Part shown: piece by piece, positions 10,707 to 45,543 of the stretch
How the letters are laid out: each line of letters starts with the position of its first letter
Numbering within the stretch: the stretch's first letter is position 1
From: a virus
Direction: 5' to 3' (one strand)
DNA length: 64,000 nt
Virus record (IMG/VR): IMGVR_UViG_3300028558_000016
Coordinates: 214,014-278,013 of that record
Notes under the pieces: generated by a model
Told to the model about the DNA's origin: nothing
Seen by the model: the letters and a program-made list of their open reading frames with translations, nothing else
Database searches by the model: none
Position numbers and translations under genes: made by a program

Positions 10707-10707
10707 A

Positions 10708-11314: not shown

Positions 11315-11378
11315 AACATTTATTTTTTTATTATCATTTTTGTTAGTATTTTTACATCCGTGAAAATACTGAAAGAAA

Positions 11379-11738: not shown

Positions 11739-12403
11739 GAAGAAAACACATCATCAACACGTTCGCACGTAAAGCGGAAAAGAATTGGGACACTCTTTAT
11801 TGGGCTGTCGACATTCACGACACCTGCATAAAAGCAAATTATAAAGCTGGAGACATTCCAACTGAATTTTTTCCAGGTGCAAAAGAAGCATTAATAAAAA
11901 TAGCAAGCAGACCAGACTGTTGTCTTATATTATTCACATGTTCTCATCCGCATGAGATTGAAAAATATTTGGACTATTTCAAATCTCATGGAGTTAGATT
12001 CAAACACGTAAACAAAAATCCAGAAGCTGAGAATACTGCATTTGGTTTCTTTGAACACAAGTTTTATACCAACTTCATACTTGATGACAAAGCAGGTTTT
12101 GACCCGAAAGAAGATTGGGACATGATATTGAATGCATTGGAAGAAGTTGAATACATGGAAAGCACAACTCCAGAAGAAAGAGCCGCTCACAAGAAAACAG
12201 AAGAACGTCTTCCATACATATTTTCATTTACAGCCACGGCCGGAATTTTATTAGGATGCCTTTTAGGAATATGGACGCATTGGACACTTGGTGCTTTATT
12301 TTGTATTGCATCATTTGTGTTTAACACAATATATTTTTCCAAAAAAACAGATAGTGCACCTCTTAAATATCACACACCAGCATTTAAAAATAAATACCGA
12401 TGA
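11735..12403 (+). CDS. hypothetical protein with C-terminal TM anchor
   Basis: 222 aa; ATGA overlap; C-terminal hydrophobic helix. Confidence 0.5.
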   Translation: MRRKHIINTFARKAEKNWDTLYWAVDIHDTCIKANYKAGDIPTEFFPGAKEALIKIASRPDCCLILFTCSHPHEIEKYLDYFKSHGVRFKHVNKNPEAENTAFGFFEHKFYTNFILDDKAGFDPKEDWDMILNALEEVEYMESTTPEERAAHKKTEERLPYIFSFTATAGILLGCLLGIWTHWTLGALFCIASFVFNTIYFSKKTDSAPLKYHTPAFKNKYR

Positions 12404-15608: not shown

Positions 15609-16724
15609 ATGTGGTCAGACAGAGACTTAAAAGGTCCATTTTTAAAATATCGTGACATCCTTACAAAGTATGGATGCAGCGATGAAGACATTGCTAAACT
15701 TCAATCAATGTGGAATGAACCACACAGAGTTTATCACAACCAAGAACATCTTGATGAGATTATCTCATTAATAGAAAATTGGAAATCTCCAACCATCATT
15801 GATGGCAAAATGACTGAGACTGAATTCGATCTATTTATTCTTACTGCAATCTTCCATGATGCGATATATGATCCAAGAGCTAAATCTGGCGAGAATGAAT
15901 TAAATTCTGCTGAGTTATTTTTAAAGATGTGTCCAAAAGCAGCTGAGAGCGAATTGAACCCGCAAGGAAATCCATATAAATCCGTTTCAGATTTCGTATA
16001 TGGAATGATACTCGATACGAAAGACCACACACAAGAACCTTCATCAACATATTCAAGAGTATTCTTAGAATATGACTTGCATGGCATGATTAATGGAAGC
16101 TTATCGAGAATGATCTCTGATGAAGCAAAGATAATGCGCGAATATGGTTTCGTCGATTATGAAACTTACCATAATGTTAGAGGAACACAATTCTTGGAAA
16201 AGTTTGCCCCTCATATAAAGAAGCTAAATCCAAACTCAAAGGTGGAAGAGTATCTTGATTGGTATAAGAACAGAACTCCTAATATAGCGATATTTGCTGG
16301 AAGCTTTTATCCATTTCACAAAGGACACTTGGACATTCTGAAGAGAGCTGAAAGAATATTCGATAAGGTTATTGTGTTATTGTGCGTTAATCCCGGAAAG
16401 AATAACAACAGCGAACATGTTAAAGGATATATCATTAATGAATTAAGAGGAAAGCTTCCTAATAATCAGATTGAATTTTTCGATGGGATGTTACATAACT
16501 ACATAAAGAAATTAAGCTATCCAGTTTCCATAGTTAAAGGATTAAGGAATGCAAGCGATTTTGATTCTGAGAAATTACAATTAAGATATATGGAAGACAT
16601 GTGCCCTGACATAAATATAGTTTATATTGTGTCTGACAGAAAATATGAACACATTTCTTCTTCTGGCATTAAGCAAATACAAAGCATGGGAGCATTAAGT
16701 GAAGCTAAAGAATATTTAATATGA
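15609..16724 (+). CDS. HD-domain phosphohydrolase fused to HxGH cytidylyltransferase-family nucleotidyltransferase (NMNAT/PPAT-like)
   Basis: N-part: H..H (YHNQEHL) and HD (FHDAIYDP) motifs. C-part: FAGSFYPFHKGHLDILKRA...VNPGKN, typical CoaD/NMNAT signature. Confidence 0.65.
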   Translation: MWSDRDLKGPFLKYRDILTKYGCSDEDIAKLQSMWNEPHRVYHNQEHLDEIISLIENWKSPTIIDGKMTETEFDLFILTAIFHDAIYDPRAKSGENELNSAELFLKMCPKAAESELNPQGNPYKSVSDFVYGMILDTKDHTQEPSSTYSRVFLEYDLHGMINGSLSRMISDEAKIMREYGFVDYETYHNVRGTQFLEKFAPHIKKLNPNSKVEEYLDWYKNRTPNIAIFAGSFYPFHKGHLDILKRAERIFDKVIVLLCVNPGKNNNSEHVKGYIINELRGKLPNNQIEFFDGMLHNYIKKLSYPVSIVKGLRNASDFDSEKLQLRYMEDMCPDINIVYIVSDRKYEHISSSGIKQIQSMGALSEAKEYLI

Positions 16725-22427: not shown

Positions 22428-23072
22428 ATGGGAAATGACGTTTGGGGAGGAAAACCCGGCATGGAAGCCGAGGATAAAAAATCTGTAACTACGCCAATAG
22501 TAAGCGCAGGAAGCAGTGATAGAGTAGATTCACTTGGATCTAAAATTTTCTTTTATTCTTCGGTTGTCGAAGATAAAATTCTTGATCTCAATAAACACTT
22601 GCATGAAATATCTGGAAAGATGGCTGCAAGAAATTTTGAAAATTCTTTAGGCGACAATGCTTTAATTACAACACCCATAATGTTGCACATTAAATCTTAT
22701 GGTGGTTCAGTGTTCGCAGGACTTGCTGCAATGGATACAATCATTGATATTAAAAAGAGAGTTCCAGTTTACACAATTGTAGAAGGATGTGCAGCAAGCG
22801 CAGGAACTTTTCTTTCTTGTGTTGGTACAAAAAGATACATGCGCAAACATGCATGGCTGTTAATTCACCAATTGAGTTCTGGCTTCTGGGGAAAATACAG
22901 CGAGATAAAGGATGAAGTAGAAAATCTCGATCGTTTAATGGAAACAATCAAGAAGATTTACAAGGAGAATACAAAGGTTCCTATGAAGGAACTTGATGGC
23001 ATTCTTAAAAGAGACATTTGGTGGGATGCGCAGACTTGTTTGAAGTATGGATTAATAGATGAAATAATTTAA
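22428..23072 (+). CDS. ClpP-family serine protease (candidate prohead/processing protease)
   Basis: HIKSYGGSVFAGLAAMDTI (cf. INSPGGSVTAGLAIYDTM), Ser in EGCAASAGTFL, His in LLIHQL. Confidence 0.6.
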   Translation: MGNDVWGGKPGMEAEDKKSVTTPIVSAGSSDRVDSLGSKIFFYSSVVEDKILDLNKHLHEISGKMAARNFENSLGDNALITTPIMLHIKSYGGSVFAGLAAMDTIIDIKKRVPVYTIVEGCAASAGTFLSCVGTKRYMRKHAWLLIHQLSSGFWGKYSEIKDEVENLDRLMETIKKIYKENTKVPMKELDGILKRDIWWDAQTCLKYGLIDEII

Positions 23073-23073
23073 T

Positions 23074-23376
23074 ATGGAAGAAAAAGAATTGATAATACTC
23101 ACACATTATGTGAATGTTGGGAGTTCATCTCCAGAAACAGCAAAGCGTATAATGGAAAGAACCGTAGAAATGGTTTTGAGCGAGGATACAGATCCATTGT
23201 ATAGATTTAAACATTTTTTCTATCCTGTGAAAGATGAAGTCAATGCAAGAACAGAATGCATCTATCCTGTAAGACAAGGTCCAATGGGAATTCCTGGAGT
23301 TCCTGGAGATTATTTTGAATCGATTTTGAAAGACCTTGATAATAAGTACGAACAGCTTTTAGAAAAAATAGGATGA
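23074..23376 (+). CDS. hypothetical protein
   Basis: 100 aa. Confidence 0.45.
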   Translation: MEEKELIILTHYVNVGSSSPETAKRIMERTVEMVLSEDTDPLYRFKHFFYPVKDEVNARTECIYPVRQGPMGIPGVPGDYFESILKDLDNKYEQLLEKIG

Positions 23377-24836
23377 TACTCGATATAGAAAAAAGACCTC
23401 ACGAACTTGCATGCAGTTACTTCAATAAAGAAGGAACAATTGAATATGTAAGAATTCCAGTTCCATTGAACGAAAGATTCAATTGGTTAACTTGTAATGA
23501 CACGGATAAGGACAAGGACGTAGAATGGAAAACGTGGGACGAAAATCCTGTAAAGAAGATAATCGTAAAAGATGCAACTAAACTTTCTAAGTATAGATGT
23601 GAAGAGGTTATTTATCAACATACACAAGCAAATCCCGACTCTCCGTTATTGGAGTTTAATGTTCCAAGAAAGTATTTCATAGATATTGAGGTTGAGGTTC
23701 TTGATGGATTTCCAGATCCTGACACAGCACAAAATAAAATAACTGCAATATCAATCGCAGGCGCTGATAGCAAAAGGATTTTTGTTCTTGGTCTTAAACC
23801 ATTAACAGAAGCGCAATGTCACAAGATCGATGCCGACATCAACGGGCACTTTGCCAAGTTCGATGATAAATGGAATTTCCAATACAAGCAGTTTGATTCT
23901 GAGCATGACATGTTGGTTGAATTCTTTCAGAAGATATTACCTAACATGCCTTGCATAAGTGGATGGAATTTTTTCGGATACGATTGGAAGTACCTTCTTA
24001 ACAGAGCTTACAAATACAAGGATGTAAAACCAGAGAGATGTTCTCCGTCGAATACTTTAATAACAAAAAGAAATTCCGGTAATTCAGGAATTCCACAACA
24101 TAAGCTTATTGTGGATTACATGGAAATTTACAAGAAGTGGGATAAGGTTATCAAGGTAAGAGAAAACGATAAGCTTGATTATGTTGCCAAGATGGCAACA
24201 GGATTGGAGAAAATTAAATATCCAGGAAGCTTCACAGAGCTTTATGAAAGAGATTTTCAAAAGTTTATCTTCTATAACGCGGTCGATTCAATTCTGGTTC
24301 ATTACATCGATAAGAAGCTAAACACAATGTTGGCTTATCTTAAATTGGCACATGTTTCAGGAATAGAAATAAAGAAAGCATTCTCTCCTATTTGGATCAT
24401 GGAAGCAATGATGAACAGAAAATTCCTTGACAGAAAACAAGTATTCGTTTATTTGGGTGGAGATGAAGAAGATCAAAAACCATTTGATGGTGCGTATGTA
24501 AAAGAACCTTTGAGAGGATTTCACAATTGGGTTACATGTTATGACTTTGCATCTTTGTATCCTAATACCATGATGCAATTCAACATCAGTCCAGAAACAT
24601 TTGTTGGAAATAACGTTGAGCCTAAAGAAGGTCAGATCAAGGCCGGTGAGCACGTCAATGAATTTGGAAAAACATCTTGGAGAGTTTTCGATAACAGCTC
24701 TGACTCCATAATGAGAGTAATTTTAACAGAGCTTTATGGAAAGAGAAAAGAAACGAAACAAAAGTACCTCTCTATTAATAAAGAGATCGACGCTCTCAGC
24801 AAGTACATTTCAAAAGAACGATTAGAGAAAGCCTAA
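23373..24836 (+). CDS. family B DNA polymerase, N-terminal segment (3'-5' exonuclease + polymerase motif A)
   Basis: Exo I YFIDIEVE, Exo II WNFFGYDWKYL, Exo III YNAVDSIL, motif A YDFASLYPNTM; ends before motif B. Confidence 0.85.
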   Translation: MILDIEKRPHELACSYFNKEGTIEYVRIPVPLNERFNWLTCNDTDKDKDVEWKTWDENPVKKIIVKDATKLSKYRCEEVIYQHTQANPDSPLLEFNVPRKYFIDIEVEVLDGFPDPDTAQNKITAISIAGADSKRIFVLGLKPLTEAQCHKIDADINGHFAKFDDKWNFQYKQFDSEHDMLVEFFQKILPNMPCISGWNFFGYDWKYLLNRAYKYKDVKPERCSPSNTLITKRNSGNSGIPQHKLIVDYMEIYKKWDKVIKVRENDKLDYVAKMATGLEKIKYPGSFTELYERDFQKFIFYNAVDSILVHYIDKKLNTMLAYLKLAHVSGIEIKKAFSPIWIMEAMMNRKFLDRKQVFVYLGGDEEDQKPFDGAYVKEPLRGFHNWVTCYDFASLYPNTMMQFNISPETFVGNNVEPKEGQIKAGEHVNEFGKTSWRVFDNSSDSIMRVILTELYGKRKETKQKYLSINKEIDALSKYISKERLEKA

Positions 24837-25345: not shown

Positions 25346-26194
25346 TTGCTTGTGAAAAATTTTTTAAACGGATTGTTAGATAAAGTTGTTACTAATTTCG
25401 GATTTGACTCAAACCATGATTTCTCCTCTTCCATGATGCATGCTAATTTGCTGTTCTTCACTATACCAGTTGCCTTCATATCTTCCTTTATAGAAAACTA
25501 TTTTGGACTGCAGGCTGTTACCCTTATAGCTTTCGTGACGCTTATTGCACTGGAATTAATAACAGGAATAAGTTCTTCAAGAGTAAGGAAAATTCCATTA
25601 CAATCAAAGAGGTTCAGCAGATTTGGTTTTAAGCTTGTTATTTGGTTCTTGATATTCTTCATCCTTCAAACCATGAAGCTTCAATACAAGGACAATGCCG
25701 TCATAGGTGGAATATACAGTTGGCTGCACAGCAGCATCTTCATATATGTCACGCTTGAGTATTTGATCTCTGTTGTTGAGAACGTATCTGTCATCACGGG
25801 AGATAACAACAACGTCATCCTGCACATGATAAAGGGAACTGTTGGAAAATACATGAAGGTTAAAGAGAATGAGGCGGAAGAGTTCTTCCAAGTAAACGAT
25901 GAACTTTTATGTGTTCTGTCTGAAGAAGGTAAATTCAGAAAGGTAAATAAGGCATGGATGGAAGCACTTGGATACGATGAGAAATACATCCTCAATAAAA
26001 GCTTTAAGGAATTCGTTCATCCAGAGGATTTAAAGAAGACCAAGGAAGAATATGAGAAATTGAAATCATCTGGAACTATTTCAGGATTGATAAACAGGTA
26101 TAAGACAAAAGACGGCAATTACATCTATTTGTCATGGCACGCTAAAGGAGGTAAGAACGGAATGTTCTACTGCACCACAAAGGTCGTAATCTAA
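25346..26194 (+). CDS. holin-like membrane domain (Holin_4_1/TcdE-type) fused to a C-terminal PAS domain
   Basis: TM helices plus ELITGISSSRVRKIPLQSKRFSRFGFKLVIWFLIFF (cf. TcdE DTLLGCLSAIKSRKF..S.GIDGGIRKV). C-terminus LCVLSEEGKFRKVNKAWMEALGYDEKYILNKSFKEFVHPEDL...KTKDGNYIYL is PAS-like. TTG start as in track. Confidence 0.5.
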   Translation: MLVKNFLNGLLDKVVTNFGFDSNHDFSSSMMHANLLFFTIPVAFISSFIENYFGLQAVTLIAFVTLIALELITGISSSRVRKIPLQSKRFSRFGFKLVIWFLIFFILQTMKLQYKDNAVIGGIYSWLHSSIFIYVTLEYLISVVENVSVITGDNNNVILHMIKGTVGKYMKVKENEAEEFFQVNDELLCVLSEEGKFRKVNKAWMEALGYDEKYILNKSFKEFVHPEDLKKTKEEYEKLKSSGTISGLINRYKTKDGNYIYLSWHAKGGKNGMFYCTTKVVI

Positions 26195-28970: not shown

Positions 28971-30806
28971 ATGAAAGACAAAATCACGTACTTTTTAAAA
29001 GAATCAACAGTCTTCACTAAATTCTTAGTGGTAGTAGGCTTAGTTGGAATCGTTTGGGGCTTTAAATATGCATGGGAAACATGGATGCCTAAACCAACAG
29101 TTAAAACGGAAGTAATCGCAGTAAACGATCTTCCACCGTTAGCGTACGATAAAAACGCAAACGCAATTTCGCGTCCTTTACCTGACACCATTAACCTTAG
29201 CGAGGTTGGTGCACCGTTCCAATTGAGAGCGGAAATCATGGGATGGAACGCGCAAGCCGGAGTAGCATACGCAAATGGTGGAGCACAAACAATGGCAAAA
29301 TCAATCATGGAAGAACAAGGTGTTCGTCTTAACTTGATCTGTCAAAACAATTGCGGTAAACAAGGTGAGGATGTATTTGCATTCGCACAAGAATATGCTA
29401 AAGGAAGTAAAACATCCGCAAAAGGATGTCACATGATTGCCTGGATGGGTGATGGAGTTCCATCTTACTTGCAGGACTTAAACGAACGCATCAAAAAACA
29501 AATTGGTGAAGAATACATCTTACAAGTGTTCGCAACGTTCGGTGCTTCTTTCGGTGAAGATAAAGCAATCTTCGAAAACGGTTCATTCAAACAAGATCCT
29601 CAAAAATTACGCGGTTCATTATGGTGCGGTGTTATTCGTGATGGAGATTGGAACATCTTAATGAAATATGCAGACATGAACCAAATTCCAGTAAACACAG
29701 ATCTTACAACTTACGATCCTACCGGTATTAATTGGATGCAAGCTCCTGATTTCGATTACACGAAAGCTGCTCAACAATATGTTGCTCGCACAAAAGAAAA
29801 ACGTGAAATCGTTATAAATGGAAAACGTACAGGCCGTGACACTACAGTTGCAGTTAATGGTTGTGTTACATGGTTCCCTGGTGATCAAGTTGCTTTCCAA
29901 GGTCGTGGCGGTGTAACAGTTGCTTCAACTAAAGATTTTGGTGCTCAAATGGCAAACACTTGGTTAGCTCCAAAGAAATGGTTACAAGACAATCGCGCAT
30001 ACGTTGAGAAATTTATTTATGCCGGTTTATTAGGTGGAGATCAAGTTAAATCTCATAGTTCAGCTCTTGCATTTGGTTGCCGTGTTGAAACTGCTATCTA
30101 TGCTGATGCTACAATGAAAGCTTCTGATTGGGAAAATGCATTCAAAGGAATGCAATATACCGATGCAAATGGAAACATGTGCGAAATCGGTGGTTCACGT
30201 GTATTCAACTTATCGGATGCTGCTGAGTATTATGGATTAACAAATGGTGGAACTGACAAATATGCTGCGGTGTATTCTACATTCGGTGATCTTTGTGTTA
30301 AGGCATATCCTAAAGACGTTCCAAAATATCCTGCTTATGAAGAAGTAGTTGATTTAAGCTACATCACAGAAGTTTACACCAAGAACAAAGGGTCAAACAC
30401 TTCAGTTGCTTCAATGCCAACATTCAAAGAAGGTCAAACAATGACATCATCGTTTTCTTCTAAGAAAGTTTCCATTGAATTTGACTTAGGTAGCGCAACA
30501 ATCAAGCCTTCATCTTATGCTACATTACAAGGCATTGCAAACGATTTCATCGTTGCTGAAGGTTTACTTGCAACTATCGAAGGTCATACTGACAACACTG
30601 GAAATGCTGATGCTAACATGAACCTATCTCAACAACGTGCTGATGCCGTTAAGAATTGGTTGATGAATAAAAATCCTAAGTTATTCAAAAACAAAATCAC
30701 TTCGGTTGGTTACGGACAAGATCGTCCAGTTGATCCAAACGCAGACAACAACAATGCTTCTAATAGAGCACACAATCGTCGCGTTGAAATTAAACTTGGC
30801 CACTAA
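28971..30806 (+). CDS. large N-terminally anchored protein with C-terminal OmpA-like peptidoglycan-binding domain (possible substrate-binding component)
   Basis: N-terminal TM/signal anchor. C-terminus IEGHTDNTGNADANMNLSQQRADAVKNWL...GYGQDRPV...NRRVEI is a classic OmpA_C domain. Followed by ABC permease and ATPase. Confidence 0.65.
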   Translation: MKDKITYFLKESTVFTKFLVVVGLVGIVWGFKYAWETWMPKPTVKTEVIAVNDLPPLAYDKNANAISRPLPDTINLSEVGAPFQLRAEIMGWNAQAGVAYANGGAQTMAKSIMEEQGVRLNLICQNNCGKQGEDVFAFAQEYAKGSKTSAKGCHMIAWMGDGVPSYLQDLNERIKKQIGEEYILQVFATFGASFGEDKAIFENGSFKQDPQKLRGSLWCGVIRDGDWNILMKYADMNQIPVNTDLTTYDPTGINWMQAPDFDYTKAAQQYVARTKEKREIVINGKRTGRDTTVAVNGCVTWFPGDQVAFQGRGGVTVASTKDFGAQMANTWLAPKKWLQDNRAYVEKFIYAGLLGGDQVKSHSSALAFGCRVETAIYADATMKASDWENAFKGMQYTDANGNMCEIGGSRVFNLSDAAEYYGLTNGGTDKYAAVYSTFGDLCVKAYPKDVPKYPAYEEVVDLSYITEVYTKNKGSNTSVASMPTFKEGQTMTSSFSSKKVSIEFDLGSATIKPSSYATLQGIANDFIVAEGLLATIEGHTDNTGNADANMNLSQQRADAVKNWLMNKNPKLFKNKITSVGYGQDRPVDPNADNNNASNRAHNRRVEIKLGH

Positions 30807-30813
30807 GAAATAT

Positions 30814-30843
30814 GGAAAAGGGCTTCGGCCCTTTTCTTTTTTC
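30814..30843 (+). terminator. rho-independent terminator
   Basis: GAAAAGGGC-TTCG-GCCCTTTTC then TTTTTT. Confidence 0.75.
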
Positions 30844-30851
30844 CTCTAATC

Positions 30852-31670
30852 TTGTGTAGTATGAAACAGTTAAAGATGCTTAGGCAGACAGCCATTGATG
30901 TGACCACTCCAAATAAAACAATTGGAGGTTCGTCAAAAAATTCCATATTCGCATTTTGGATTTGTTCCACCATGTTGTTATGGTTCTTGACAGGATCAAA
31001 ACTTCTTCCATCGCCAATGGATATTCTAACGGCATTGAAGATGATGATCGTGGATAAGAATTTCATAGGTGAGCTTTTGACAAGCACCACCTTTTGTATG
31101 AAGGCAATGGGATATGCAATTGTCGTATCATTCATTGTAGCATACCTCTCAGTGCTTCCAATATTTAGACCTATATGTGCATTCGTTGCTAAAGCAAGAT
31201 TCTTAAGCACAGCAGGTTTGACGTTCTTTGTTGGAGAAATAACCCCAGACAGCGGAGTTAAAAAACTCGTAATGCTTTCGTTTGTCATCACTGTATTTCT
31301 TGTTACTTCCATGCTCGCAGTAGTTATGGATGTTAAGAAGGATGATCTTGATTATGCAAGAACATTGAGAATGAATGAATGGAAAGCCGTATGGGCAGTA
31401 ATAATTAGAGGAAAGATCGATATGATGTTTGAAGTGATAAGACAAAATTTTGCCATTGCCTGGATGATGCTTGCCATGTCGGAAAGCTTATGCAGGGCAG
31501 AAGGTGGGATAGGAATATTATTGACAGACACAGACAAACATTTCCACCTCGATGAGGTATTTGGAATTCAACTTGTGGTGTTATGTGTTGGTATGTTCTT
31601 TGATTGGTCACTTAGAAAAATCAGAGCTTGGTTCTTTCCATATTCAGTGCTTAAACTTGAAAGGAAGTAA
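30852..31670 (+). CDS. ABC transporter permease (NitT/TauT SsuC/TauC-like)
   Basis: LLPSPMDIL N-terminal signature, 6 predicted TM helices, conserved loop ...AIAWMMLAMSESLCRAEGGIGILL. Confidence 0.65.
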   Translation: MCSMKQLKMLRQTAIDVTTPNKTIGGSSKNSIFAFWICSTMLLWFLTGSKLLPSPMDILTALKMMIVDKNFIGELLTSTTFCMKAMGYAIVVSFIVAYLSVLPIFRPICAFVAKARFLSTAGLTFFVGEITPDSGVKKLVMLSFVITVFLVTSMLAVVMDVKKDDLDYARTLRMNEWKAVWAVIIRGKIDMMFEVIRQNFAIAWMMLAMSESLCRAEGGIGILLTDTDKHFHLDEVFGIQLVVLCVGMFFDWSLRKIRAWFFPYSVLKLERK

Positions 31671-31672
31671 TT

Positions 31673-32500
31673 ATGTTAGGACAGTCATATACATTAGGTG
31701 AAGACATTCTCAATGTAGAGAATGTTTCCCTTGAGCTTGGTGGAAAACTCATATTGAGAGACATCAATATAAACATTAAGGACGTAATTCGTCCGAACAC
31801 AGGACCAACAGGTCAGATCATTGGATTTCTTGGTCCATCTGGACGTGGAAAAACTCAACTATTTAAAATACTTGCAGGATTAAATAAACCAACAACAGGA
31901 CAAGTTCTTCTTGGAACTGAAAGGAAAATAGTTCAAACTGGAGATGTTGGAGTTGTTGCACAAAATTATCCGTTGTTTGAGTACTTAACGGTTTGGGGGA
32001 ATCTCGAACTTGTTGCGAAAGAAAAAACAAAAGCAGAAAAGAAAGAAAAAATTGAGTTCTATCTTGATCGTTTCAAGATGATGGAACATAAGGACAAATA
32101 TCCTGCTCTATTATCTGGAGGACAAAGACAACGCGTAGCAATCATTCAACAAATGCTTTGTTCTGAATATTTCTTATTGATGGATGAACCGTTTTCCGGT
32201 CTTGATCCATTGATGACGACGCAAGTTTGTCAAATGATAGAAACCGTTGCAAACATAAATGAGAAGAATACAATCATCATTGTGTCTCACGATATTCCAT
32301 CTACAGTATCAATAGCTCAAACCATTTGGCTTCTTGGATATGATTATGATCCTCAAACAAAACAGCCAATACCTGGAGCAAGGATAAAATACGTTGAAAA
32401 CCTTATGGATCGTGGATTGACATGGAAAGAAGATCTTGTGAACTCACCTGAATTCTTTTCATTTGTGAAAGATGTACGTAACACATTTAATGAACTGTAA
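31673..32500 (+). CDS. ABC transporter ATP-binding protein
   Basis: Walker A GPSGRGKT, signature LSGGQRQRVAI, Walker B LLMDEPFSGLD, H-loop IIIVSHD. Confidence 0.85.
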   Translation: MLGQSYTLGEDILNVENVSLELGGKLILRDININIKDVIRPNTGPTGQIIGFLGPSGRGKTQLFKILAGLNKPTTGQVLLGTERKIVQTGDVGVVAQNYPLFEYLTVWGNLELVAKEKTKAEKKEKIEFYLDRFKMMEHKDKYPALLSGGQRQRVAIIQQMLCSEYFLLMDEPFSGLDPLMTTQVCQMIETVANINEKNTIIIVSHDIPSTVSIAQTIWLLGYDYDPQTKQPIPGARIKYVENLMDRGLTWKEDLVNSPEFFSFVKDVRNTFNEL

Positions 32501-32737: not shown

Positions 32738-33301
32738 ATGGAAAAAGAAGAAAAAGAAGAAAGTATTTCAATGTTAGAAAGAATTTTGCTTTCATCCAAA
32801 TATCTGCTCATCCCGTTTTTCATGGGTTTGATGGTATCATTAGCAATTTACACCTACATTGACATTAAAGAAATATGGCACTTGTTCCACAAGGTCAAAG
32901 CTTTAGAGCCAAATGATGGAATGTTAATGTTGTTGGAAATAATAGACATTGCAATGGTAGCATTCTTGGTTAAGCTAATTATCGTAGGAAGTTATTCTTC
33001 TTTTTATAAGAAGAATGATGGAGGTGGAAAGAAAGTAGATCCAAACATAAATACAAGCTCAGGCGTATTGAAAGTTAAGATTGCGACAGCATTAATAGGT
33101 GTTACATCGATCAATTTGTTAACCACATTCATTAAACCAGAAGAGGTGAGTATGGAAGCCTTTCAAAAGAAATTGGTAATACACGCAACGTTCTTGATAG
33201 GAGCATTGGTATTAGCTGCGATAGATTGGATGCACGTTAAGGCAGAAGCAATACACCACCAGGATTGCATCTGTTGTAAAGAAAAAGGAATAACACATTA
33301 A
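32738..33301 (+). CDS. membrane protein
   Basis: 187 aa, several hydrophobic helices. Confidence 0.5.
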   Translation: MEKEEKEESISMLERILLSSKYLLIPFFMGLMVSLAIYTYIDIKEIWHLFHKVKALEPNDGMLMLLEIIDIAMVAFLVKLIIVGSYSSFYKKNDGGGKKVDPNINTSSGVLKVKIATALIGVTSINLLTTFIKPEEVSMEAFQKKLVIHATFLIGALVLAAIDWMHVKAEAIHHQDCICCKEKGITH

Positions 33302-34306: not shown

Positions 34307-34945
34307 ATGAACAACAACAACGACACCAACGAAACAGGAACAGTAGCAACTTCAAACGAAACCGCTGCTTCAACCTCAACCGCAAAAAAGCCAGCTAAGA
34401 AAGCTGCAAAAAAACCGCATGTAACAAAACCTGCCGCTAAAAAACCTGCAGCAAAGAAACCTGCTAAAAAAACAGCAAGCAAACCTGCTGCTAAAAAACC
34501 GGCAAAAAAAGCTGCTAAGCCAGCTAAAAAAGTAGCTAAAAAACCTGCTGCTAAAAAACCATCAAAAAAATCAGGAAAACGTACAGCCGACAATTTCGAT
34601 CGTAACTTCGGTCGCATCCGTTTCAACGGTGAGTCATTCTCAAAAGGCCGTGCAGTTCATGCAGTAATCGCTGCTTTTGCTGAAAAGAAAAAACCGACCG
34701 CTTCAGCGTTACAAGCTGCATTCCCGGCTGAGTTATTGAAAAACTACGGTATCGTACGCGAAGCTGCAAAAGCACGTCAATACAATGTAAATGGAAAAAC
34801 CCGTTTCTTTGTTGACAGCGCGGACCTTATCAAAACAAAAGATGGAAAATCTTTTGCAGTGTGTAATCAATTCTCTACTGAGAACATTAAACCATTCATC
34901 AAGCATGCGAAATCTTTAGGTTTCACCATGACTGCTGGAAAATAA
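34307..34945 (+). CDS. histone H1-like Lys/Ala/Pro-repeat DNA-binding protein
   Basis: ~60 aa of AKKPAAKKPAKK repeats followed by a globular C-domain; CGN arginine codons. Confidence 0.6.
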   Translation: MNNNNDTNETGTVATSNETAASTSTAKKPAKKAAKKPHVTKPAAKKPAAKKPAKKTASKPAAKKPAKKAAKPAKKVAKKPAAKKPSKKSGKRTADNFDRNFGRIRFNGESFSKGRAVHAVIAAFAEKKKPTASALQAAFPAELLKNYGIVREAAKARQYNVNGKTRFFVDSADLIKTKDGKSFAVCNQFSTENIKPFIKHAKSLGFTMTAGK

Positions 34946-36372: not shown

Positions 36373-36792
36373 ATGTCAAAGAAATCCAAGGTATCAAGGT
36401 CGGTTGCTGCCAAAAGGAAGTTGAAAGATCATCTTAAGACTCACCTTGGCAAGAATTCTTCTTGTTACTTTACTCCAACGGAGTCAGTTGCTTGGTATTG
36501 GTGGAGAGTCATCAATAAGGCCGCGTTCAAAAACAAACTTCCATATCCAAAAGAAATTGTCATTAGGAAATTAAGAGGAGCATGGGGAATTTGTGACGGC
36601 AAAGCAAGGATGGACATGTGTGTCATAACAATATCGTCAGACATTACAAACAGAAAATTATTCATTGCAACAGTTGCGCATGAAATGGTTCATCAATGGC
36701 AATTCCATTACGCAGCAGGAAACCTACACCACGGATCCAATTTCAGAGATTGGGACGTATACTTTAAAAGAAACTTCGGCATCACTTTATGA
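36373..36792 (+). CDS. SprT-like zinc metalloprotease domain protein
   Basis: ATVAHEMVHQWQFHYAAGNLHHGSNF matches SprT HExxH..H..HG..F pattern. Confidence 0.6.
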   Translation: MSKKSKVSRSVAAKRKLKDHLKTHLGKNSSCYFTPTESVAWYWWRVINKAAFKNKLPYPKEIVIRKLRGAWGICDGKARMDMCVITISSDITNRKLFIATVAHEMVHQWQFHYAAGNLHHGSNFRDWDVYFKRNFGITL

Positions 36793-36983: not shown

Positions 36984-37016
36984 GGAACAATTTCTGATGC
37001 TTATTATAGAATAGGC

Positions 37017-38687
37017 ATGGCAAATATTGATAAGATCACATCGAGCAGCACGGCAGAATACTTCTCAAAGAACCTTCAACAGGTGGGATTCTCATCTCAC
37101 ACTAAAGCAGTTTTGACTGTTGTTAAGGAATCTGTAGATAATTCTCTTGATGCCTGCGAAGAAGCTGGAATACTTCCAAACATCAACGTCATCATCGAAA
37201 AGATGGGACCTGGAACATTAACTGGTTCGGACCAAATTCGTGTTCGAGTGGAAGATAATGGTCCTGGAATAAATCAAGAAGACATTCAAAAAGTTTTCGG
37301 AGAATATCTTTCGTCATCCAAATTCGGAAGAGGTAGATGTTCGAGAGGGCAACAAGGTATAGGAATCTCTGCAGCAACCACATGGGCCCAATTGACTAAT
37401 GCGATGGGCGTAAGAGTAATCACAAAAAGGAAAGAGAATAATAAAGCCATAAAATGCCTCGTTGAAGTTGACATCAAAAATAACAAGGGTGTTATCAAAG
37501 ATAAGGAGTCAATAACATGGAATAAACCTCATGGCACTTGTGTTGAGTTTATATTTGACGGAAGAATACAAGCCAACGGAGAACTTGGTTTAATAAACTA
37601 CCTAACAGGAACCGCACTTGTGAATCCACACATGTCCATGGATTATAAGATCTTTGGATTTGAACAGAAGGTTCTAACCCGAGTAAGCAATGACATGCCG
37701 GAAATTCCAGAGGCAGTCGAACCACATCCACACACTTTAAAACTTGGTGAATTCATAGCGCACTCACACATGTATGGGAAAACTAAAGTAGACCATTGGT
37801 TGAAAAAAGGTTTCTCCAGAATAAACGAAGGCACTCTTAAAGACATTGCTAAGCATGGAGGAAAGGGAATGATGACAAAACAAGTCGATAGCTTAAATGA
37901 TGTCGAACTTAAAACTCTATTTAAAGCAATACAAGATACAAAGCTAATGGCTCCGATGACAAAGAGCGTAATGTCGATTGGAGAGGAAGCATTTTCAAAA
38001 AGCATGAAGAGACTTGGAACAGTAAATTTCTTTTCCATAGTTTCAAGAACTCCTTGCGTATGTGATTTTAAACCAGTTCTTGTGGAAGTTGCAATTGCTC
38101 GTGTGTCAGATGGTGGACCTGAAGATTCATCCGCTCAAGTTCTAAGATTTGCAAACAGAGTTCCTCTTCAGTTTGATAAGTCGTCTTGCGCAATAGTCAA
38201 ATCAATTGAGAGCGTAAATTGGAAAGCATACGGATTAAACCAACCAAAGAATTCTCTTCCATTAGGACCATACATCATAGCAGTTTCAGTTGTTTCTCCT
38301 TTCATCAAGTTTAAAAATGCTTCTAAAGAAACAATCGATGCATCAGATGAATTAGTGGAAGAAATAAGAAAAGCATTAATACAAGCAGGGCAGAGATTAT
38401 CAAAACACATCAAACATGAGGATAAGGCAGCAGAGCTTGAAAAGAAGTTAAGACACATCGAACAGTTCTGTCCAATATTATTAAATGGATTGTGTCATAT
38501 AACAAATGCTTCCAAGACAAGAAGAAATCAAGCAGAAAAAGGTCTTGCCAATCTTCTTGGAAGAGATGCAAAATCGACAAAGCTCGAACTTGATCAAGCA
38601 ACAAAAAGCTTAAACAAGGCTAAAGAAAAAGGAACCATCCAAAATAAAGAAAAAGGATTGGACGAAATAATGGATGATTTAATTTAA
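37017..38687 (+). CDS. type IIB DNA topoisomerase (Topo VI-like) subunit B, GHKL ATPase
   Basis: Bergerat-fold motifs ESVDNSLDA (N box), DNGPGI (G1), GQQGIGISAA (G2). Confidence 0.8.
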   Translation: MANIDKITSSSTAEYFSKNLQQVGFSSHTKAVLTVVKESVDNSLDACEEAGILPNINVIIEKMGPGTLTGSDQIRVRVEDNGPGINQEDIQKVFGEYLSSSKFGRGRCSRGQQGIGISAATTWAQLTNAMGVRVITKRKENNKAIKCLVEVDIKNNKGVIKDKESITWNKPHGTCVEFIFDGRIQANGELGLINYLTGTALVNPHMSMDYKIFGFEQKVLTRVSNDMPEIPEAVEPHPHTLKLGEFIAHSHMYGKTKVDHWLKKGFSRINEGTLKDIAKHGGKGMMTKQVDSLNDVELKTLFKAIQDTKLMAPMTKSVMSIGEEAFSKSMKRLGTVNFFSIVSRTPCVCDFKPVLVEVAIARVSDGGPEDSSAQVLRFANRVPLQFDKSSCAIVKSIESVNWKAYGLNQPKNSLPLGPYIIAVSVVSPFIKFKNASKETIDASDELVEEIRKALIQAGQRLSKHIKHEDKAAELEKKLRHIEQFCPILLNGLCHITNASKTRRNQAEKGLANLLGRDAKSTKLELDQATKSLNKAKEKGTIQNKEKGLDEIMDDLI

Positions 38688-38691
38688 AACA

Positions 38692-39843
38692 ATGGCAAAA
38701 AATAACGACATATCAAAACTAAGCAAGGACATTTGCGAAAGACTTTTGTCAGACTTGGAAAATTCTAAGAGACCAACATTGAAAGCAACAAAGTGTTCTT
38801 TGGACAATGCTGTGTATGATTTCAAAAAGGGATATTTGACGGCTGGACCAAAGAAAGTAATAACGGAATTGAATGTTAGCTCGGTCAAGAAGATGGCAAG
38901 AACTATATTTGTTCTTAAGATCATTTTAAGAAACATAGAGGTTGGAGCGGTCAACACTAAACGTGAGATTTATTACATCTGCAAAGGTGAAATAAAACAT
39001 GATCCTTCGTTGAAACCAATAAACTTTGAAGACCAAAGCGAGTCAGACGAAATAATAGATTTCATTTGTGAGTTATTGGAATGTTACAGAGAAGAATTGA
39101 ATTGCTTCGCCAACGATAGAGGTGGACAAACATATTCGCAAAACCTAATTGTGACCGAAACATTAAATGACGGAACAATTGCAACCATAGATCTTTCCAA
39201 ATTAGGAACAACTCCTTTTCAACCTAAAAACAGACCTCAAAGCTTAAAGCTATCTTCTAACGCAGGAAAGAAGAAACCTGATTTCTGTTTGATAGTTGAG
39301 TCAGAAGGTACTGCCAACACGCTCGTGTCAAACGGTTTCACCAAAAGGAATAATTGCATTTTGTTAGGTGCTCAAGGAGTTCCATCAAATGCAGTAAGAG
39401 GTTGGTGCAAGCTTATACAGGATGATCTTAAAATTCCATTATATTTCTTTGGTGACCTTGACGCATACACCATGCAAAACATTTTCAGAACGTTGAAAGC
39501 CGGATCAGCATCAAGCATTTTAAGGAATGCAGATTTCTCTGCACCCGACGTTAAGTTCCTTGGTGTTCTTCCTAAGGACATAAAGAAATACGATCTCAAT
39601 GATTACCCGGTAAAGACAAGCGATGCTCAGGAAGTAAGAGCTTTGAAGAAAGCTGCTGATGCTTTGAAAAATGATCCTTTCTTTCAAGACAAGAACAACA
39701 AGGGGTTAACTGAGGTGTTGAAATGGTTATTAGTCAATAAGAGACGTTGCGAGCAACAATCTTTCTTCAGTGTTAATCCCAAGGATCCTATAATGCCAGA
39801 GAAGATAATTCTTGACAAGATAAAGAATGGGGATTTCTTATAA
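38692..39843 (+). CDS. type IIB DNA topoisomerase subunit A (Spo11/Topo VI-A-like)
   Basis: Catalytic-Tyr context REIYYICKGE; Toprim acidic residues LIVESEGTANTL and YFFGDLDAYT. Confidence 0.8.
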   Translation: MAKNNDISKLSKDICERLLSDLENSKRPTLKATKCSLDNAVYDFKKGYLTAGPKKVITELNVSSVKKMARTIFVLKIILRNIEVGAVNTKREIYYICKGEIKHDPSLKPINFEDQSESDEIIDFICELLECYREELNCFANDRGGQTYSQNLIVTETLNDGTIATIDLSKLGTTPFQPKNRPQSLKLSSNAGKKKPDFCLIVESEGTANTLVSNGFTKRNNCILLGAQGVPSNAVRGWCKLIQDDLKIPLYFFGDLDAYTMQNIFRTLKAGSASSILRNADFSAPDVKFLGVLPKDIKKYDLNDYPVKTSDAQEVRALKKAADALKNDPFFQDKNNKGLTEVLKWLLVNKRRCEQQSFFSVNPKDPIMPEKIILDKIKNGDFL

Positions 39844-39904
39844 ACCGAAACTTTGCAAAATCTAACTTATAGAATGATTAAACAATCTAATACAGATATA
39901 AACC

Positions 39905-40702
39905 ATGAGCACAACAACGACAAAAACTAAGAAACAAGTTGCAACATTTAAGATCAAATCACCGAACAATTTCATTTCATTCTTAAAACGTTTCTCTCCA
40001 ATAGAGAAATCACTGTTGCTTGAATTAGCAGAAGATCCTAAGACTCCAGGCACCTATGCAATGGTGGCCAAGTCACATACACCAGACAGATCAACAATAA
40101 AATACTCTAAGCTTCCATTAACTGAAGTTCTCGAGGGGACAGTGCCTGCAAAGAACTTAAAGGTTGCTTTGCTCGACATCAATAAGGTAGTAAACGTGTT
40201 TAGACATTTCAACGATGGTGATGAGATATTTCTCGACATCTCTTACGATGATGTTAATGATGATACATTTGCTTTCAGTTTAAAATTCTACACGAAATCA
40301 TTGAAGATTAATTTGACCTGTGCTGATCCAATTCAGTTCACACATATTTCGGCTGAAGCATTAAAGAGAATTGTGAAGTCTGTGGATGATGAAAAGATCC
40401 TCGAATTCCCTTTCCCTAAAGAAGCATTCTCGAAAATAAATTCTCTTTGCGGAATTGATGCTGGGGATGATTTACTCAAAATCAAAGTAACAGCAGAAGG
40501 TGAAGTGTTCTTCACAAGCAAATCATTCGAGTATCACATCCTCGATGTACCTGCTGGAAAAGAAGCTAACATGGCATTCTACAACAGCCAATTCGCTTTC
40601 ATCGACCAAGAGGTTTCTGCTTTTCACTTAAGCCAAAACAAGTTACTCGTTAAATCAACTGATTCAAACACGATGATCATCGTTGGTAGAATCGAAAGAT
40701 AA
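39905..40702 (+). CDS. possible sliding clamp (gp45-like); otherwise hypothetical
   Basis: 265 aa; position among replication genes; loose N-terminal resemblance to T4 gp45 (ATFKIKSPNNFISFLKRFS vs ...TTALLKNFATINSG...). Confidence 0.3.
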   Translation: MSTTTTKTKKQVATFKIKSPNNFISFLKRFSPIEKSLLLELAEDPKTPGTYAMVAKSHTPDRSTIKYSKLPLTEVLEGTVPAKNLKVALLDINKVVNVFRHFNDGDEIFLDISYDDVNDDTFAFSLKFYTKSLKINLTCADPIQFTHISAEALKRIVKSVDDEKILEFPFPKEAFSKINSLCGIDAGDDLLKIKVTAEGEVFFTSKSFEYHILDVPAGKEANMAFYNSQFAFIDQEVSAFHLSQNKLLVKSTDSNTMIIVGRIER

Positions 40703-41716: not shown

Positions 41717-42931
41717 ATGAGCTTTCAATATACACAAATAGATCCAGAAACAGCTACCCCGGAAGAAATTAAGGCCGAGATAGACAGGATGAAACAACTT
41801 TCCAATGAGTGGAAAAACGAAGAACAAGCAGTAAAAATCTTAATTAATTCCATGTATGGTGCTCTTGGAAATAAGTGGCTCGTATGTTTCAACCCAGACG
41901 TTGCTGAGACCGTAACACATCAAGGACAAAACTTCTTCATGCTTGCGGAAAAATCTATAAATCATTATTTCCAAAACATGTGGGTTAAGGATACAGAGCT
42001 TCATGCAAAGCTTGGAATTGTTGGAGAAGTAAAACCCGTAAAAAAACCTGTTGTAATTGCTGGAGACACTGATAGCTGTTATGTTTGTTGGGACGAAGTA
42101 GTGGAGTCTTTCGATTGGGAAGCATCCAATGTTGAAGGTGGACCTCATGGACTCATATTGAAAATAAATGAATTCCGATTTGCTAACTTCTTAAACACCG
42201 TGTTTGACAGATATGCAGCAAGAGAGAAAACAAAGAACTATCAAGATTTTGAACTCGAGAATATTTCTGAATCTGCTATATGGCTTGCAAAGAAGAAGTA
42301 CTTATTGAATGTTGTATGGCAAGATGGAATTGACATCAATACTCTTACTCAGATCACATTCAAGGGAGTTGAATTAGCACAATCATCAACTCCTGAATTT
42401 GCGAGAGAGAAATTAAAAGATCTCGTTAAGTTCGTATTCACAAATAAGAAAGGGTTGAAGCTTAACGACATCATCGGTCTATTAAAAAAATATAAAGAAG
42501 AATTCAAGATAGCTGATCCTCAGAAAGTTTCCATGGGTAGAGGAATAACTGATTATAGCAAATACATTTTGAATGACTCAACTAAATTTGAGGTGGCAAG
42601 CAAATGTCCAATTCACGTTAGGGCTGCAGGATATTACAATTATTTGCTTAACCAAAATCCAAAATTAAAAAGCAAGTACGAAGTAATAAAGGCTGGTGAC
42701 AAGATTAAATTCTTCCACGCTAAGACAAAGGGATGGTCCGAGAATTTAGCGAGCAACGAAGAGGATGTATTCGCATTTCTTCCAGGATCTTTTCCTGTGG
42801 AGTTTGCTCCTCCAATTGATTATGATAATCAATTCACTAAAACTATCATTGACCCAATAAATAGGATCACCTCAGCAATGGGACTTCCAGATATTGGCCC
42901 GAATTTATTTATTGCGCATGCGCTTTTCTAA
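41717..42931 (+). CDS. family B DNA polymerase, C-terminal segment (motifs B and C, thumb)
   Basis: Motif B KILINSMYGALG, motif C IAGDTDSCYV; begins ~45 aa before motif B. Confidence 0.85.
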   Translation: MSFQYTQIDPETATPEEIKAEIDRMKQLSNEWKNEEQAVKILINSMYGALGNKWLVCFNPDVAETVTHQGQNFFMLAEKSINHYFQNMWVKDTELHAKLGIVGEVKPVKKPVVIAGDTDSCYVCWDEVVESFDWEASNVEGGPHGLILKINEFRFANFLNTVFDRYAAREKTKNYQDFELENISESAIWLAKKKYLLNVVWQDGIDINTLTQITFKGVELAQSSTPEFAREKLKDLVKFVFTNKKGLKLNDIIGLLKKYKEEFKIADPQKVSMGRGITDYSKYILNDSTKFEVASKCPIHVRAAGYYNYLLNQNPKLKSKYEVIKAGDKIKFFHAKTKGWSENLASNEEDVFAFLPGSFPVEFAPPIDYDNQFTKTIIDPINRITSAMGLPDIGPNLFIAHALF

Positions 42932-44262: not shown

Positions 44263-45543
44263 ATGGCAAAAAAAGTAACAACAAAAGCAGCTTCAACGAA
44301 AGCAACAACGTCAAAAGGATTCGACTTCGGAAAATTCGATGCACAGCTATCGAAGATTGAAGGATTCGAAACAGGGTCAATTTTCGAGAACAATGTATTC
44401 TCCGAAGTGGATGAGTGGATCAGCGTAGGAAACTACTTGATGAATGCTCAATTCTCTGGAACATTGTTTGGTGGAATTCCAAACACAAGAAGCGTAGGAT
44501 TTGGTGGAGATCCAGGAAGCGGTAAAACGTTCCTGTGTTTGAACATCGTACGCGAAGCACAAAAGACAGGATACTTTGTATTCTATTGTGACACAGAAGG
44601 AGCAGTGGATAGAGAACAAGCAACAAACTTTGGGATTGACACATCGAAAGTAAGGTATCAACCTATCAAGACGATTTCTCAATTCAAAACATTTGTGGTC
44701 ACTGTTATTGGAATGTTGAAAGAAGAAAAGAAAAAACGTCCAGACAATGATCCGCCTAAGTTCATGATTGTGTTAGACTCTCTTGGAATGTTAACCACAG
44801 ACAAGGAACAAAAAGATGCAATCGCAGGACACAACGCGCAAGACATGGGGTCTAAAGCTAAGGAGCTTCGTTCATTGTTTAGAAACATCACGTTAGACCT
44901 TGCAGAACACAGAGTTCCATTAATATGTACAAACCACTCTTCGTGGGGAGGTATGATGGCACCTAAGACTGTATCAGGTGGTGACGGTCCAATTTTTGCA
45001 ATGTCTCTTTTGTCGATGTTAAGCACAAAACAATTGAAAGAAGGTGATGTTAAAACTGGAATCATTGTTAAGAGCAGCATGAAGAAAAGCAGATTTGCTA
45101 TTCCAAGATCAATCGAAATTCACATATCATTCTTGAAAGGAATGAATCCTTTCGTTGGTCTTGAGCACTTTATAAGCTGGGAAAATTGTGGAGTGGAAAG
45201 AGGAACTATCCTAACTGCAAAAGAAGCAACAAAACAAAAAGTGGATGGAGAAGCTTACAAGACAACCTTAGTCGATGAAGAGACTGGAGAAATGTCAGAA
45301 GTTGATTTAGTGTTTGTGGCTAAAGCGACTGCAAAAACATTCGCAGTAAAACATCTTGGCAAAAATGTTTCTCCCAAAGAATTATTTTCTGAGAAAGTGT
45401 TTACTCTTGAAGTTTTAAAACAGTTAGACGAAAACGCCATCAAGCCTTACTTCTCATTCCCTTCAAAAGAAGAAGCAGAAGCGCAAGAAGCAGCACAGTA
45501 CGAAGAAGTTTTAGATTCAGATGATTCTGAGTCTGAAGATTAA
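44263..45543 (+). CDS. uvsX: UvsX/RecA-family recombinase
   Basis: GGIPNTRSVGFGGDPGSGKTFLCLN Walker A in RecA context; acidic C-terminal tail DSDDSESED. Confidence 0.75.
   Translation: MAKKVTTKAASTKATTSKGFDFGKFDAQLSKIEGFETGSIFENNVFSEVDEWISVGNYLMNAQFSGTLFGGIPNTRSVGFGGDPGSGKTFLCLNIVREAQKTGYFVFYCDTEGAVDREQATNFGIDTSKVRYQPIKTISQFKTFVVTVIGMLKEEKKKRPDNDPPKFMIVLDSLGMLTTDKEQKDAIAGHNAQDMGSKAKELRSLFRNITLDLAEHRVPLICTNHSSWGGMMAPKTVSGGDGPIFAMSLLSMLSTKQLKEGDVKTGIIVKSSMKKSRFAIPRSIEIHISFLKGMNPFVGLEHFISWENCGVERGTILTAKEATKQKVDGEAYKTTLVDEETGEMSEVDLVFVAKATAKTFAVKHLGKNVSPKELFSEKVFTLEVLKQLDENAIKPYFSFPSKEEAEAQEAAQYEEVLDSDDSESED

Follow-up and report, generated by a model that had tools for sequence, protein, structure and literature searches.

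A Complete Topoisomerase VI Gene Pair of Bdellovibrionota Type in the Replication Module of a Huge Phage

Results

Two Adjacent Genes Encode Full-Length Topoisomerase VI Subunits

We analyzed a 64,000-nt stretch of viral DNA (positions 214,014 to 278,013 of IMG/VR record IMGVR_UViG_3300028558_000016), hereafter the window, which carries a pair of topoisomerase VI (Topo VI) genes, top6B and top6A. Both lie on the + strand. The top6B gene (37017..38687) encodes a B subunit of 556 aa, comprising a GHKL ATPase, an H2TH domain, a transducer, and a charged, helical 58-aa tail; top6A (38692..39843) encodes an A subunit of 383 aa with a 5Y-CAP/winged-helix domain and a Toprim domain. The two genes are separated by 4 nt and follow the order B then A, as in cellular loci. 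A first-pass annotation, drawn from the letters of the window, had placed adjacent genes for a GHKL ATPase and a Spo11/Topo VI-A-like protein at 37017–39843, and open reading frames (ORFs) occupy exactly these positions, with profile scores far above chance.

Profile, sequence, and structure searches identify the pair as full-length canonical Topo VI B and A. Top6B matches the NCBIfam Topo VI-B equivalog NF003218 with 511.7 bits (cutoff 274; aa 5–544), as well as Pfam HATPase_c and Topo-VIb_trans (E = 2e-44), and the MutL profile gives it just 24.8 bits. Top6A matches Pfam TP6A_N (E = 6e-16) and TOP6A-Spo11_Toprim (E = 1e-37). In sequence searches of the PDB, Methanosarcina mazei Top6B (2q2e_B; E = 3.9e-85, aa 8–498) and Methanocaldococcus jannaschii Top6A (1d3y_A; E = 3.4e-32) were retrieved, with alignments spanning nearly the whole length of each subunit. 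Foldseek searches with AlphaFold2 (AF2) models gave the same assignment: the only significant PDB matches of the A model were eight Top6A chains (E from 1e-13 to 4e-8), and the best 16 matches of the B model were Top6B (E from 1e-29 to about 1e-21, all ≤6e-21), with MutL, ParE, GyrB, and Hsp90 trailing at E ≥ 4e-8, at least 13 orders of magnitude worse. Two ways in which the topoisomerase assignment might have failed—a B subunit from a MutL- or Hsp90-like GHKL family, or an A subunit without the Spo11 fold—do not hold, because the profile, PDB, and fold searches return Top6B and Top6A.

Catalytic and DNA-Binding Residues Are Intact in Both Subunits

Residues of both subunits were mapped onto structurally or biochemically defined sites (PMC5922973, PMC7671362, PMC13040014), and conservation was scored across 32 phage and cellular Top6 sequences (for B, 10 phage-type and 22 cellular). 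The checked catalytic and DNA-binding residues of A and B are invariant in this set, with K/R exchange at two basic sites and with the KGRR loop of B, considered in the Discussion, as the exception. All motif strings named in the first-pass annotation were recovered and are included below; the coordinates in this section refer to the + strand.

In the A subunit, the 5Y-CAP motif TKREIYYICKGE (aa 89–100; 38956..38991) contains the clasp arginine R91 and the catalytic tyrosine Y95, which align to M. jannaschii R99 and Y103 and are also invariant in a diverse alignment of 30 A sequences. The Toprim glutamate E203 lies in LIVESEG (39289..39309) and the Toprim DxD residues D255 and D257 in FGDLDAY (39448..39468); alignment shows these to be invariant. 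The T2BI box, R352-C-E354-Q-Q-S357 (39742..39765), fits the Topo VI type R/K-x-E-x-x-A/S, and its invariant E354 is the clasp glutamate paired with R91 of the 5Y-CAP motif. The signatures of Topo VIII (RVELNAM) and Mini-A (WELDAL) were compared with this box, which reads RCEQQS, and were rejected.

The B subunit retains each element of the ATPase. The N-box KESVDNSLDA (aa 37–46; 37125..37154), aligned to M. mazei E44/N48, provides the general base E38 and the Mg-binding N42, both invariant in 32 of 32 sequences. D80, G82, and G84 of the G1 box EDNGPGI (aa 79–85; 37251..37271) are invariant, as are the glycines of the GxxGxG-type G2 box GQQGIGISAA (aa 111–120; 37347..37376), which follows the pattern G111-x-x-G-x-G116. 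The H2TH DNA-binding residues K263, R268, and K309 (37797..37955) align to M. mazei R263, K268, and K308 and are conserved. Within the transducer, the switch lysine K437 (NASKETI; 38316..38336) is invariant and aligns to SESKDAI of M. mazei; the basic residue of the stalk is R460. Alignment places the WKxY motif in N-W-K-A-Y-G (W402-K-A-Y405; 38217..38234), a position that separates the two sets of B sequences: all 10 phage-type proteins read W-K-A-Y and all 22 cellular proteins W-R-A-Y.

The Pair Lies in the Replication Module of a Huge Phage

Coding sequence makes up 93% of the window, 96 of whose 105 ORFs share one strand, and the Topo VI genes stand between the two halves of a split T4-type family-B DNA polymerase (PolB). 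The N-terminal half lies at 23373..24836 (+; phrog_2062 and phrog_262, E ~ 1e-79) and the C-terminal half at 41717..42931 (+; phrog_1918 and phrog_262, E ~ 1e-68), followed by a UvsX-like recombinase at 44263..45543 (+; phrog_97, E = 8e-52); an SprT-like metalloprotease precedes top6B at 36373..36792 (+; Pfam SprT-like, E = 1.8e-8). Further genes encode a dUTPase, a ClpP-type head-maturation protease, a virion structural protein, collagen-repeat tail-fibre-like proteins, and many ORFans. The 64 kb yielded no tRNA or housekeeping gene, and likewise no gene for capsid, portal, or terminase.

The window belongs to a huge phage of ~482 kb in the megaphage group that includes LR756500 and Lak-like phages. 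The best tblastn matches of the PolB N-terminal half and of UvsX, at 32–39% identity, are uncultured huge phages of 462–735 kb (LR756500-504 and LR745206) and Lak (~540 kb), and LR756500 and the window have gene order in common. The Top6A, Top6B, and ABC ATPase of the window have identical counterparts on a 482,156-bp contig. The order SprT-like gene, top6B, top6A, 265-aa ORF, PolB C-terminal half, and UvsX recurs in other samples, on contigs independent of the window (L001/L002, L008/L009, L091, and the deep-branching L093); because these contigs come from different samples and assemblers, an assembly chimera is excluded.

The PolB halves are ~17 kb apart, and the cargo between them varies. 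In the window it consists of OmpA, ABC transporter, SprT-like, and Topo VI genes. In LR756500 (L094), where PolB is found at 22495-23904 and 8787-12124 and the C-terminal half is further broken by an ORF of DUF7487/restriction endonuclease (REase) type, the syntenic interval holds an intein-containing ribonucleotide reductase (RNR), REase-like genes, and an ATP-grasp enzyme. Neither a type IIA nor any other topoisomerase was found in that interval. We considered non-orthologous displacement, in which a type IIA gene would take the place of Topo VI in LR756500, and set it aside, the site being occupied by the RNR with its intein, the REase-like genes, and the ATP-grasp enzyme.

The Pair Was Not Found in Annotated Phages

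Neither subunit had a tblastn match among 50,697 GenBank phages, including the related huge phages LR756500-504 and Lak, and megablast of a 20-kb segment against GenBank phages likewise gave no match. Scans of IMG/VR with a single protein and with a clade alignment, using clade-specific motifs, yielded no relatives; scans of this kind leave room for other Topo VI types in IMG/VR. PHROGs contains no family for A, and B has only a weak match over its GHKL region (phrog_543, E = 8.5e-10, aa 28–185). Two more distant huge phages of the same family (L090 and L092) carry no pair within 10 kb of their OmpA/ABC module.

The literature searched contained no description of Topo VI in a phage or virus. 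Surveys from 2019 and 2024 list Mini-A as the sole viral relative of type IIB enzymes, and Pseudobdellovibrionaceae among at least 17 bacterial families bearing Topo VI. The pair thus appears to be the first complete type IIB topoisomerase in a phage. The enzyme itself is ordinary: a canonical Topo VI on a new type of replicon, not a new enzyme class. The first-pass annotation had read the pair as a two-subunit Topo VI-like enzyme inside a phage replication module, a noteworthy setting, and this core reading holds: the arrangement is unusual among phages.

The Phage Genes Belong to a Bdellovibrionota Topo VI Clade

Outside phages, both subunits are closest to the chromosomal Topo VI of Bdellovibrionota (74–81% identity for A and 56–70% for B). 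Among GTDB species genomes, at least 288 contained relatives, and the best 80 of these were almost all Bdellovibrionales, Bacteriovoracaceae, Oligoflexia (including Oligoflexus tunisiensis), and Pseudobdellovibrionaceae. The cellular locus is conserved—RmuC, AI-2E transporter, top6B, and top6A among housekeeping genes—on contigs of up to 578 kb. Outside the clade, the nearest sequence in a library of 50%-identity representatives is 54% identical (P0121), cellular, and adjoins sfsA; the next is at ~34%.

In bootstrapped neighbor-joining (NJ) trees, the phage clade is monophyletic in 98–100% of replicates and joins Bdellovibrionota in 95–100%. When the B tree is rooted with the outgroup's own B, the cellular sequences are monophyletic in 0 of 100 replicates; because this tree never gives cellular monophyly, the phage clade is best placed as nested among the cellular enzymes. 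A shows no acceleration in phages (0.717 from the outgroup, against 0.708 ± 0.029 in cells), and B is mildly accelerated (0.602 against 0.542 ± 0.020). The deepest phage lineage, L093, has 76–80% A identity to the core phages, about the distance from phage to cell; in 81% of replicates its A groups with the other phages, and its B has no firm placement.

In at least four diverged phage lineages (window/L008, L001, L091, and L093), top6BA is found at one and the same insertion site. A single old capture from host to phage is the simplest history, since the phage sequences form one clade and every phage lineage holds the pair at that site. Most likely, judging from these sequence comparisons, an ancestor of this phage subclade captured top6B-top6A from a Bdellovibrionota-type bacterium. 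The suggestion in the first-pass annotation of a viral type IIB lineage therefore holds in part: a monophyletic phage-borne clade exists, but it is not independent, as it sits within the chromosomal Topo VI clade of Bdellovibrionota.

The Genes Are Retained Under Purifying Selection and Flanked by Promoter-Like Elements

Composition and substitution patterns point to long residence. GC content and third-position GC (GC3) of the pair match those of its own phage (37% in the window, 31–33% in L001), whereas cellular loci are at 42–53%. Between phage lineages, the ratio of nonsynonymous to synonymous substitution rates (dN/dS) is 0.03–0.08 for both genes, and synonymous sites are saturated. This match to each phage, together with the low dN/dS, argues for an old and retained capture. 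Gene spacing also separates the two settings: phage top6B and top6A are 1–8 nt apart, against a 1-nt overlap between their cellular counterparts.

Promoter-like elements flank the pair. A bipartite element, GGAACA-N15-TATAGAAT, lies at 36984..37012 (+) and ends 5 nt before the top6B ATG; a second copy of the same pattern follows top6A at 39847..39875 (+), upstream of the ORF that begins at 39905. The consensus GRAAC-N16-TRTADAAY has exactly two perfect matches in the 64 kb, where 0.09 are expected, and these two bracket the Topo VI genes. Copies with one mismatch occur at 14280, 21916, 41684, and 43873. Of the matches with at most one mismatch, 6/7 stand just upstream of + strand ORF starts, including those of the dUTPase gene and the PolB C-terminal half, and the architecture upstream of top6B is kept in L001 and L091. 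These patterns suggest that the Topo VI pair is wired into the phage's own expression program. Since the −10-like box ends ~5 nt before the ATG, leaderless or near-leaderless transcripts are suggested. We also considered TTATAGAAT as a general phage promoter and rejected it: the bare 8/9-mer is weakly enriched, and the bipartite pattern is more specific but rare.

Neighboring Genes and Other Cargo

The SprT-like gene is conserved upstream of top6B in all the phage contigs (L001, L008, L009, L091, and L093) and is absent at the cellular loci L003 and L005. Proteases of the SprT/Spartan family remove DNA–protein crosslinks. Speculatively, the phage protease may clear trapped Top6A–DNA adducts.

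Directly downstream of top6A, a 265-aa ORF (39905-40702) is kept in all sister contigs, and a relative with 25% identity adjoins the PolB C-terminal half in LR756500. The ORF has no match in Pfam, PHROGs, or PADLOC; its product is a candidate for an uncharacterised accessory factor in huge-phage replication. In L093, the pair is flanked and interrupted differently: a DUF3841 gene lies immediately upstream of top6B, and an extra 161-aa ORF without a Pfam match (11688-12173 of that contig) stands between top6B and top6A.

Farther upstream in the window, 28971-32500 and 32738-33301 encode an OmpA-domain protein of 611 aa, an ABC permease and ATPase, and a UPF0114 membrane protein. This module is kept across the huge-phage family (L001, L008, and L090-L093), and envelope and transport genes of this kind are unusual in phages. 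A 212-aa protein at 34307-34945, 2 kb upstream of the topoisomerase genes, bears a long N-terminal AKKP/AAKKPA repeat resembling a histone H1 tail and has no Pfam match; it may be a phage DNA-compaction protein. Other unusual cargo comprises an RNA-ligase/cytidylyltransferase fusion (496-2514), an M50-family peptidase (8216-9223, − strand), a second protein with a cytidylyltransferase domain (15609-16724), and a holin-like/PAS fusion (25346-26194).

Comparison with Known Topoisomerases and Related Systems

Likeness is greatest to the Topo VI of Bdellovibrionota, represented by B. bacteriovorus Bd2864/Bd2865, Oligoflexus tunisiensis, and metagenome-assembled genomes of Bacteriovoracaceae. These enzymes share with the phage pair the B-then-A order, subunit lengths (B ~555 aa, A ~381 aa), identical catalytic residues, and the same non-basic replacement of the KGRR loop. 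The phage copy differs in its place within a replication module, its ameliorated GC, the W-K-A-Y motif, the SprT-like neighbor, and the slightly accelerated B. Archaeal Topo VI (M. mazei 2Q2E/9O8P, S. shibatae 2ZBK, and M. jannaschii 1D3Y) has the same domain architecture in both subunits, and also shares the catalytic Tyr/Arg, Toprim E/DxD, T2BI Glu, N/G1/G2 boxes, H2TH basic residues, WKxY, and switch Lys. Identity to the archaeal enzymes is ~25–35%, however, and the KGRR loop is not conserved in the phage; where M. mazei Top6B (621 aa) has an Ig-like C-terminal domain, the phage B instead carries its 58-aa tail.

Among mobile elements and viruses, Topo VIII resembles the phage pair as a type IIB enzyme on a mobile element that combines GHKL, transducer, 5Y-CAP, and Toprim domains. 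It is mostly a single fused polypeptide with the RVELNAM box, whereas the phage enzyme has two subunits, RCEQQS, and matches to the Topo VI equivalogs. Mini-A, like phage A, is virus-encoded and unites 5Y-CAP with Toprim, but it is ~300 aa long, has no known B partner, and contains WELDAL; phage A is 383 aa, lacks WELDAL, and adjoins a canonical B. The type IIA enzyme of T4 (gp39/gp52/gp60) presumably serves the same role in a UvsX-bearing T4-like replication module, although its cleavage subunit is non-homologous and weak similarity is limited to the GHKL region of B. In the meiotic Spo11/Top6B-like complex, the B-like partner lacks H2TH and has a degenerate ATPase; phage B keeps both intact. 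Toprim nucleases of defense systems (MksG/JetD and Gabija GajA) were also considered as counterparts and rejected, with no PADLOC match and no partner genes at the locus.

Discussion

The Pair Probably Encodes a Working Enzyme of Cellular Descent

We consider it probable, with fairly high confidence, that the pair encodes a functional A2B2, ATP-dependent type IIB Topo VI of Bdellovibrionota origin, retained under strong purifying selection in a huge phage of ~482 kb. Several observations weigh against this reading or narrow it. Against the Topo VI-A profile of NCBIfam (NF003335), Top6A reaches 394.5 bits in a full-length match (aa 12–380), slightly below the cutoff of 424. The AF2 models are of moderate confidence, with pLDDT (predicted local distance difference test) of 66 for A and 64 for B and TM (template modeling) scores of ~0.4, the last attributable in A to flexible or low-confidence regions. 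The trees are distance-based NJ trees with bootstrap, not maximum-likelihood trees, and for A, the rooted tree gives cellular monophyly in 46–59% of bootstraps (82–112 cellular sequences), which does not separate sister from nested placement. The putative Bdellovibrionota host is derived from this gene pair alone: the ABC ATPase shows no host signal for Bdellovibrionota, its relatives being mainly huge-phage-like contigs and one Saprospiraceae protein (54%). A type IIA enzyme may also lie elsewhere in the ~482 kb, of which 64 kb were examined, and Topo VI would then have a narrower role.

The KGRR loop is a further point of this kind. At its position the phage B reads DGRIQANGE (aa 181–189; 37557..37583, +), so that M. 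mazei K186-G-R-R189 aligns with A186-N-G-E189 and the basic loop is absent. In M. mazei Topo VI, this loop lies in the T-segment cavity and is reported to be indispensable to strand passage. In phage and cellular Bdellovibrionota-type B alike, N187, G188, and E/D189 are fixed and the loop reads A/L-N-G-E; because the cellular enzymes share the replacement, it is a trait of the clade and not a phage adaptation. The KGRR loop is a trait of the archaeal model enzyme, not a universal criterion of the family, and its replacement, as read from the alignments, would imply a different T-segment-sensing surface in this bacterial clade.

Alternative Origins and Activities

The direction of transfer is the point on which the trees leave most room. 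Huge phages might instead have donated Topo VI to an ancestor of Bdellovibrionota, or carried it as an independent viral lineage, and we regard this as unlikely. In the rooted A tree the phage clade falls as sister to all sampled cellular sequences in the 46–59% of replicates given above, at the same rate of evolution; the distance from L093 to the core phages is about that between phages and cells; and bacterial Topo VI is itself thought to have been acquired by horizontal gene transfer (PMC11302465). The rooted B tree, however, never recovers cellular monophyly, and Topo VI occurs throughout the phylum Bdellovibrionota, in a conserved housekeeping setting, whereas the pair is confined to one huge-phage subclade, being absent from LR756500-504 and Lak and from the vicinity of the ABC genes in L090 and L092. 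The nearest outgroup pair (P0121, beside sfsA) is also cellular, and the T2BI box and all domains are those of standard Topo VI. A stricter version—that the phage clade is sister to all Bdellovibrionota Topo VI and that huge phages delivered the enzyme into the phylum—is slightly less likely, keeping a low probability because the A tree does not settle the placement. If true, it would reveal a long-lived, virus-resident, complete type IIB lineage bridging cellular Topo VI and viral Mini-A.

Descent from a cellular enzyme leaves room for a changed activity. The pair could serve mainly to break DNA, or for host takeover or anti-defense, as a Spo11-like maker of double-strand breaks or an MksG/JetD-like Toprim nuclease and not chiefly in strand passage, a reading we hold to be improbable. 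Top6A homologs do act as nucleases in meiosis, Wadjet/MksBEFG, and Gabija (PMC13040014), the loop needed for M. mazei strand passage is missing, and a neighbor from the crosslink-removing SprT-like family is conserved only in the phages. Yet the loop substitution is common to chromosomal enzymes, and phage B has kept its ATPase (E38, N42, G1, G2, and K437), H2TH basic residues, and WKxY/stalk, which Spo11 partners have lost. The R91/E354 clasp that restrains cleavage is likewise intact, A evolves at the rate of its cellular orthologs, and neither the two subunits nor either neighboring gene has a PADLOC match, with no SMC/Mks or Gaj partners at the locus. That the window is a segment of a Bdellovibrionota chromosome or plasmid, or a chimeric assembly, is very improbable. 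The 482-kb source contig, the identity of up to 81% to cellular proteins, and cell-like genes for OmpA, ABC transporter, UPF0114, and M50 peptidase might be taken that way, but cellular copies occupy a different, conserved housekeeping locus, and the phage pair lies between T4-type PolB halves amid UvsX, head protease, and virion proteins. The backbone genes are nearest to phages of 460–735 kb, the 64 kb hold no tRNA or housekeeping gene, and the arrangement recurs on L001, L002, L008, L009, L091, and L093. Hardly credible, finally, is a recently acquired, functionless, and decaying passenger. Huge phages do gather many host-derived genes, and related huge phages lack the pair; but the selection data (dN/dS of 0.03–0.08 with synonymous saturation) exclude decay, GC and GC3 are matched to the phage, catalytic residues are intact in every phage copy, and the same site is kept in lineages diverged to 56% ABC-ATPase identity.

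Proposed Role in Huge-Phage Replication

For a functional Topo VI of Bdellovibrionota origin, we infer enzymatic activity and a role in replication by analogy with characterised systems. The pair would have been inserted into the variable cargo zone between the split PolB halves and then kept under strong purifying selection. On binding ATP, B would dimerise and capture a T-segment; the A dimer would bend a G-segment and cleave it, using Y95 and a Mg2+ site made up of E203, D255, and D257, with the R91/E354 clasp in control. The resulting strand passage would relax supercoils and preferentially decatenate DNA, in line with the description of characterised Topo VI as relaxing supercoils of both signs and as a preferential decatenase (PMC8837201). 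The M. mazei enzyme is reported to complement an E. coli parE(ts) strain (PMC11302465). In the phage, the enzyme would most likely unlink and relax the branched, concatemeric intermediates of UvsX-dependent replication of a genome of ~480 kb. T4 assigns the relaxing and unlinking of its replicating genome to its type IIA enzyme.

Accounts disagree on whether Topo IV is present in B. bacteriovorus: a 2023 review lists "Top IV (Bd0005)", and the 2024 survey gives Topo IV as absent outside Pseudomonadota and Terrabacteria. The disagreement matters because it bears on whether Topo VI is the host's only decatenase.

Significance for Phage Biology

Before this pair, the type IIB relatives described from viruses had been limited to truncated proteins of the Mini-A type; on mobile elements, complete type IIB enzymes had been known as Topo VIII of plasmids. 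A retained, probably functional Topo VI in the window would mean that a T4-like replication module can operate in a phage with a type IIB enzyme, instead of or beside the usual type IIA enzyme. The origin of the genes also gives a first testable host clue, Bdellovibrionota, for this megaphage lineage. As compact Topo VI variants of bacterial type without the KGRR loop, the phage enzymes would be usable for probing how the T-segment is sensed.

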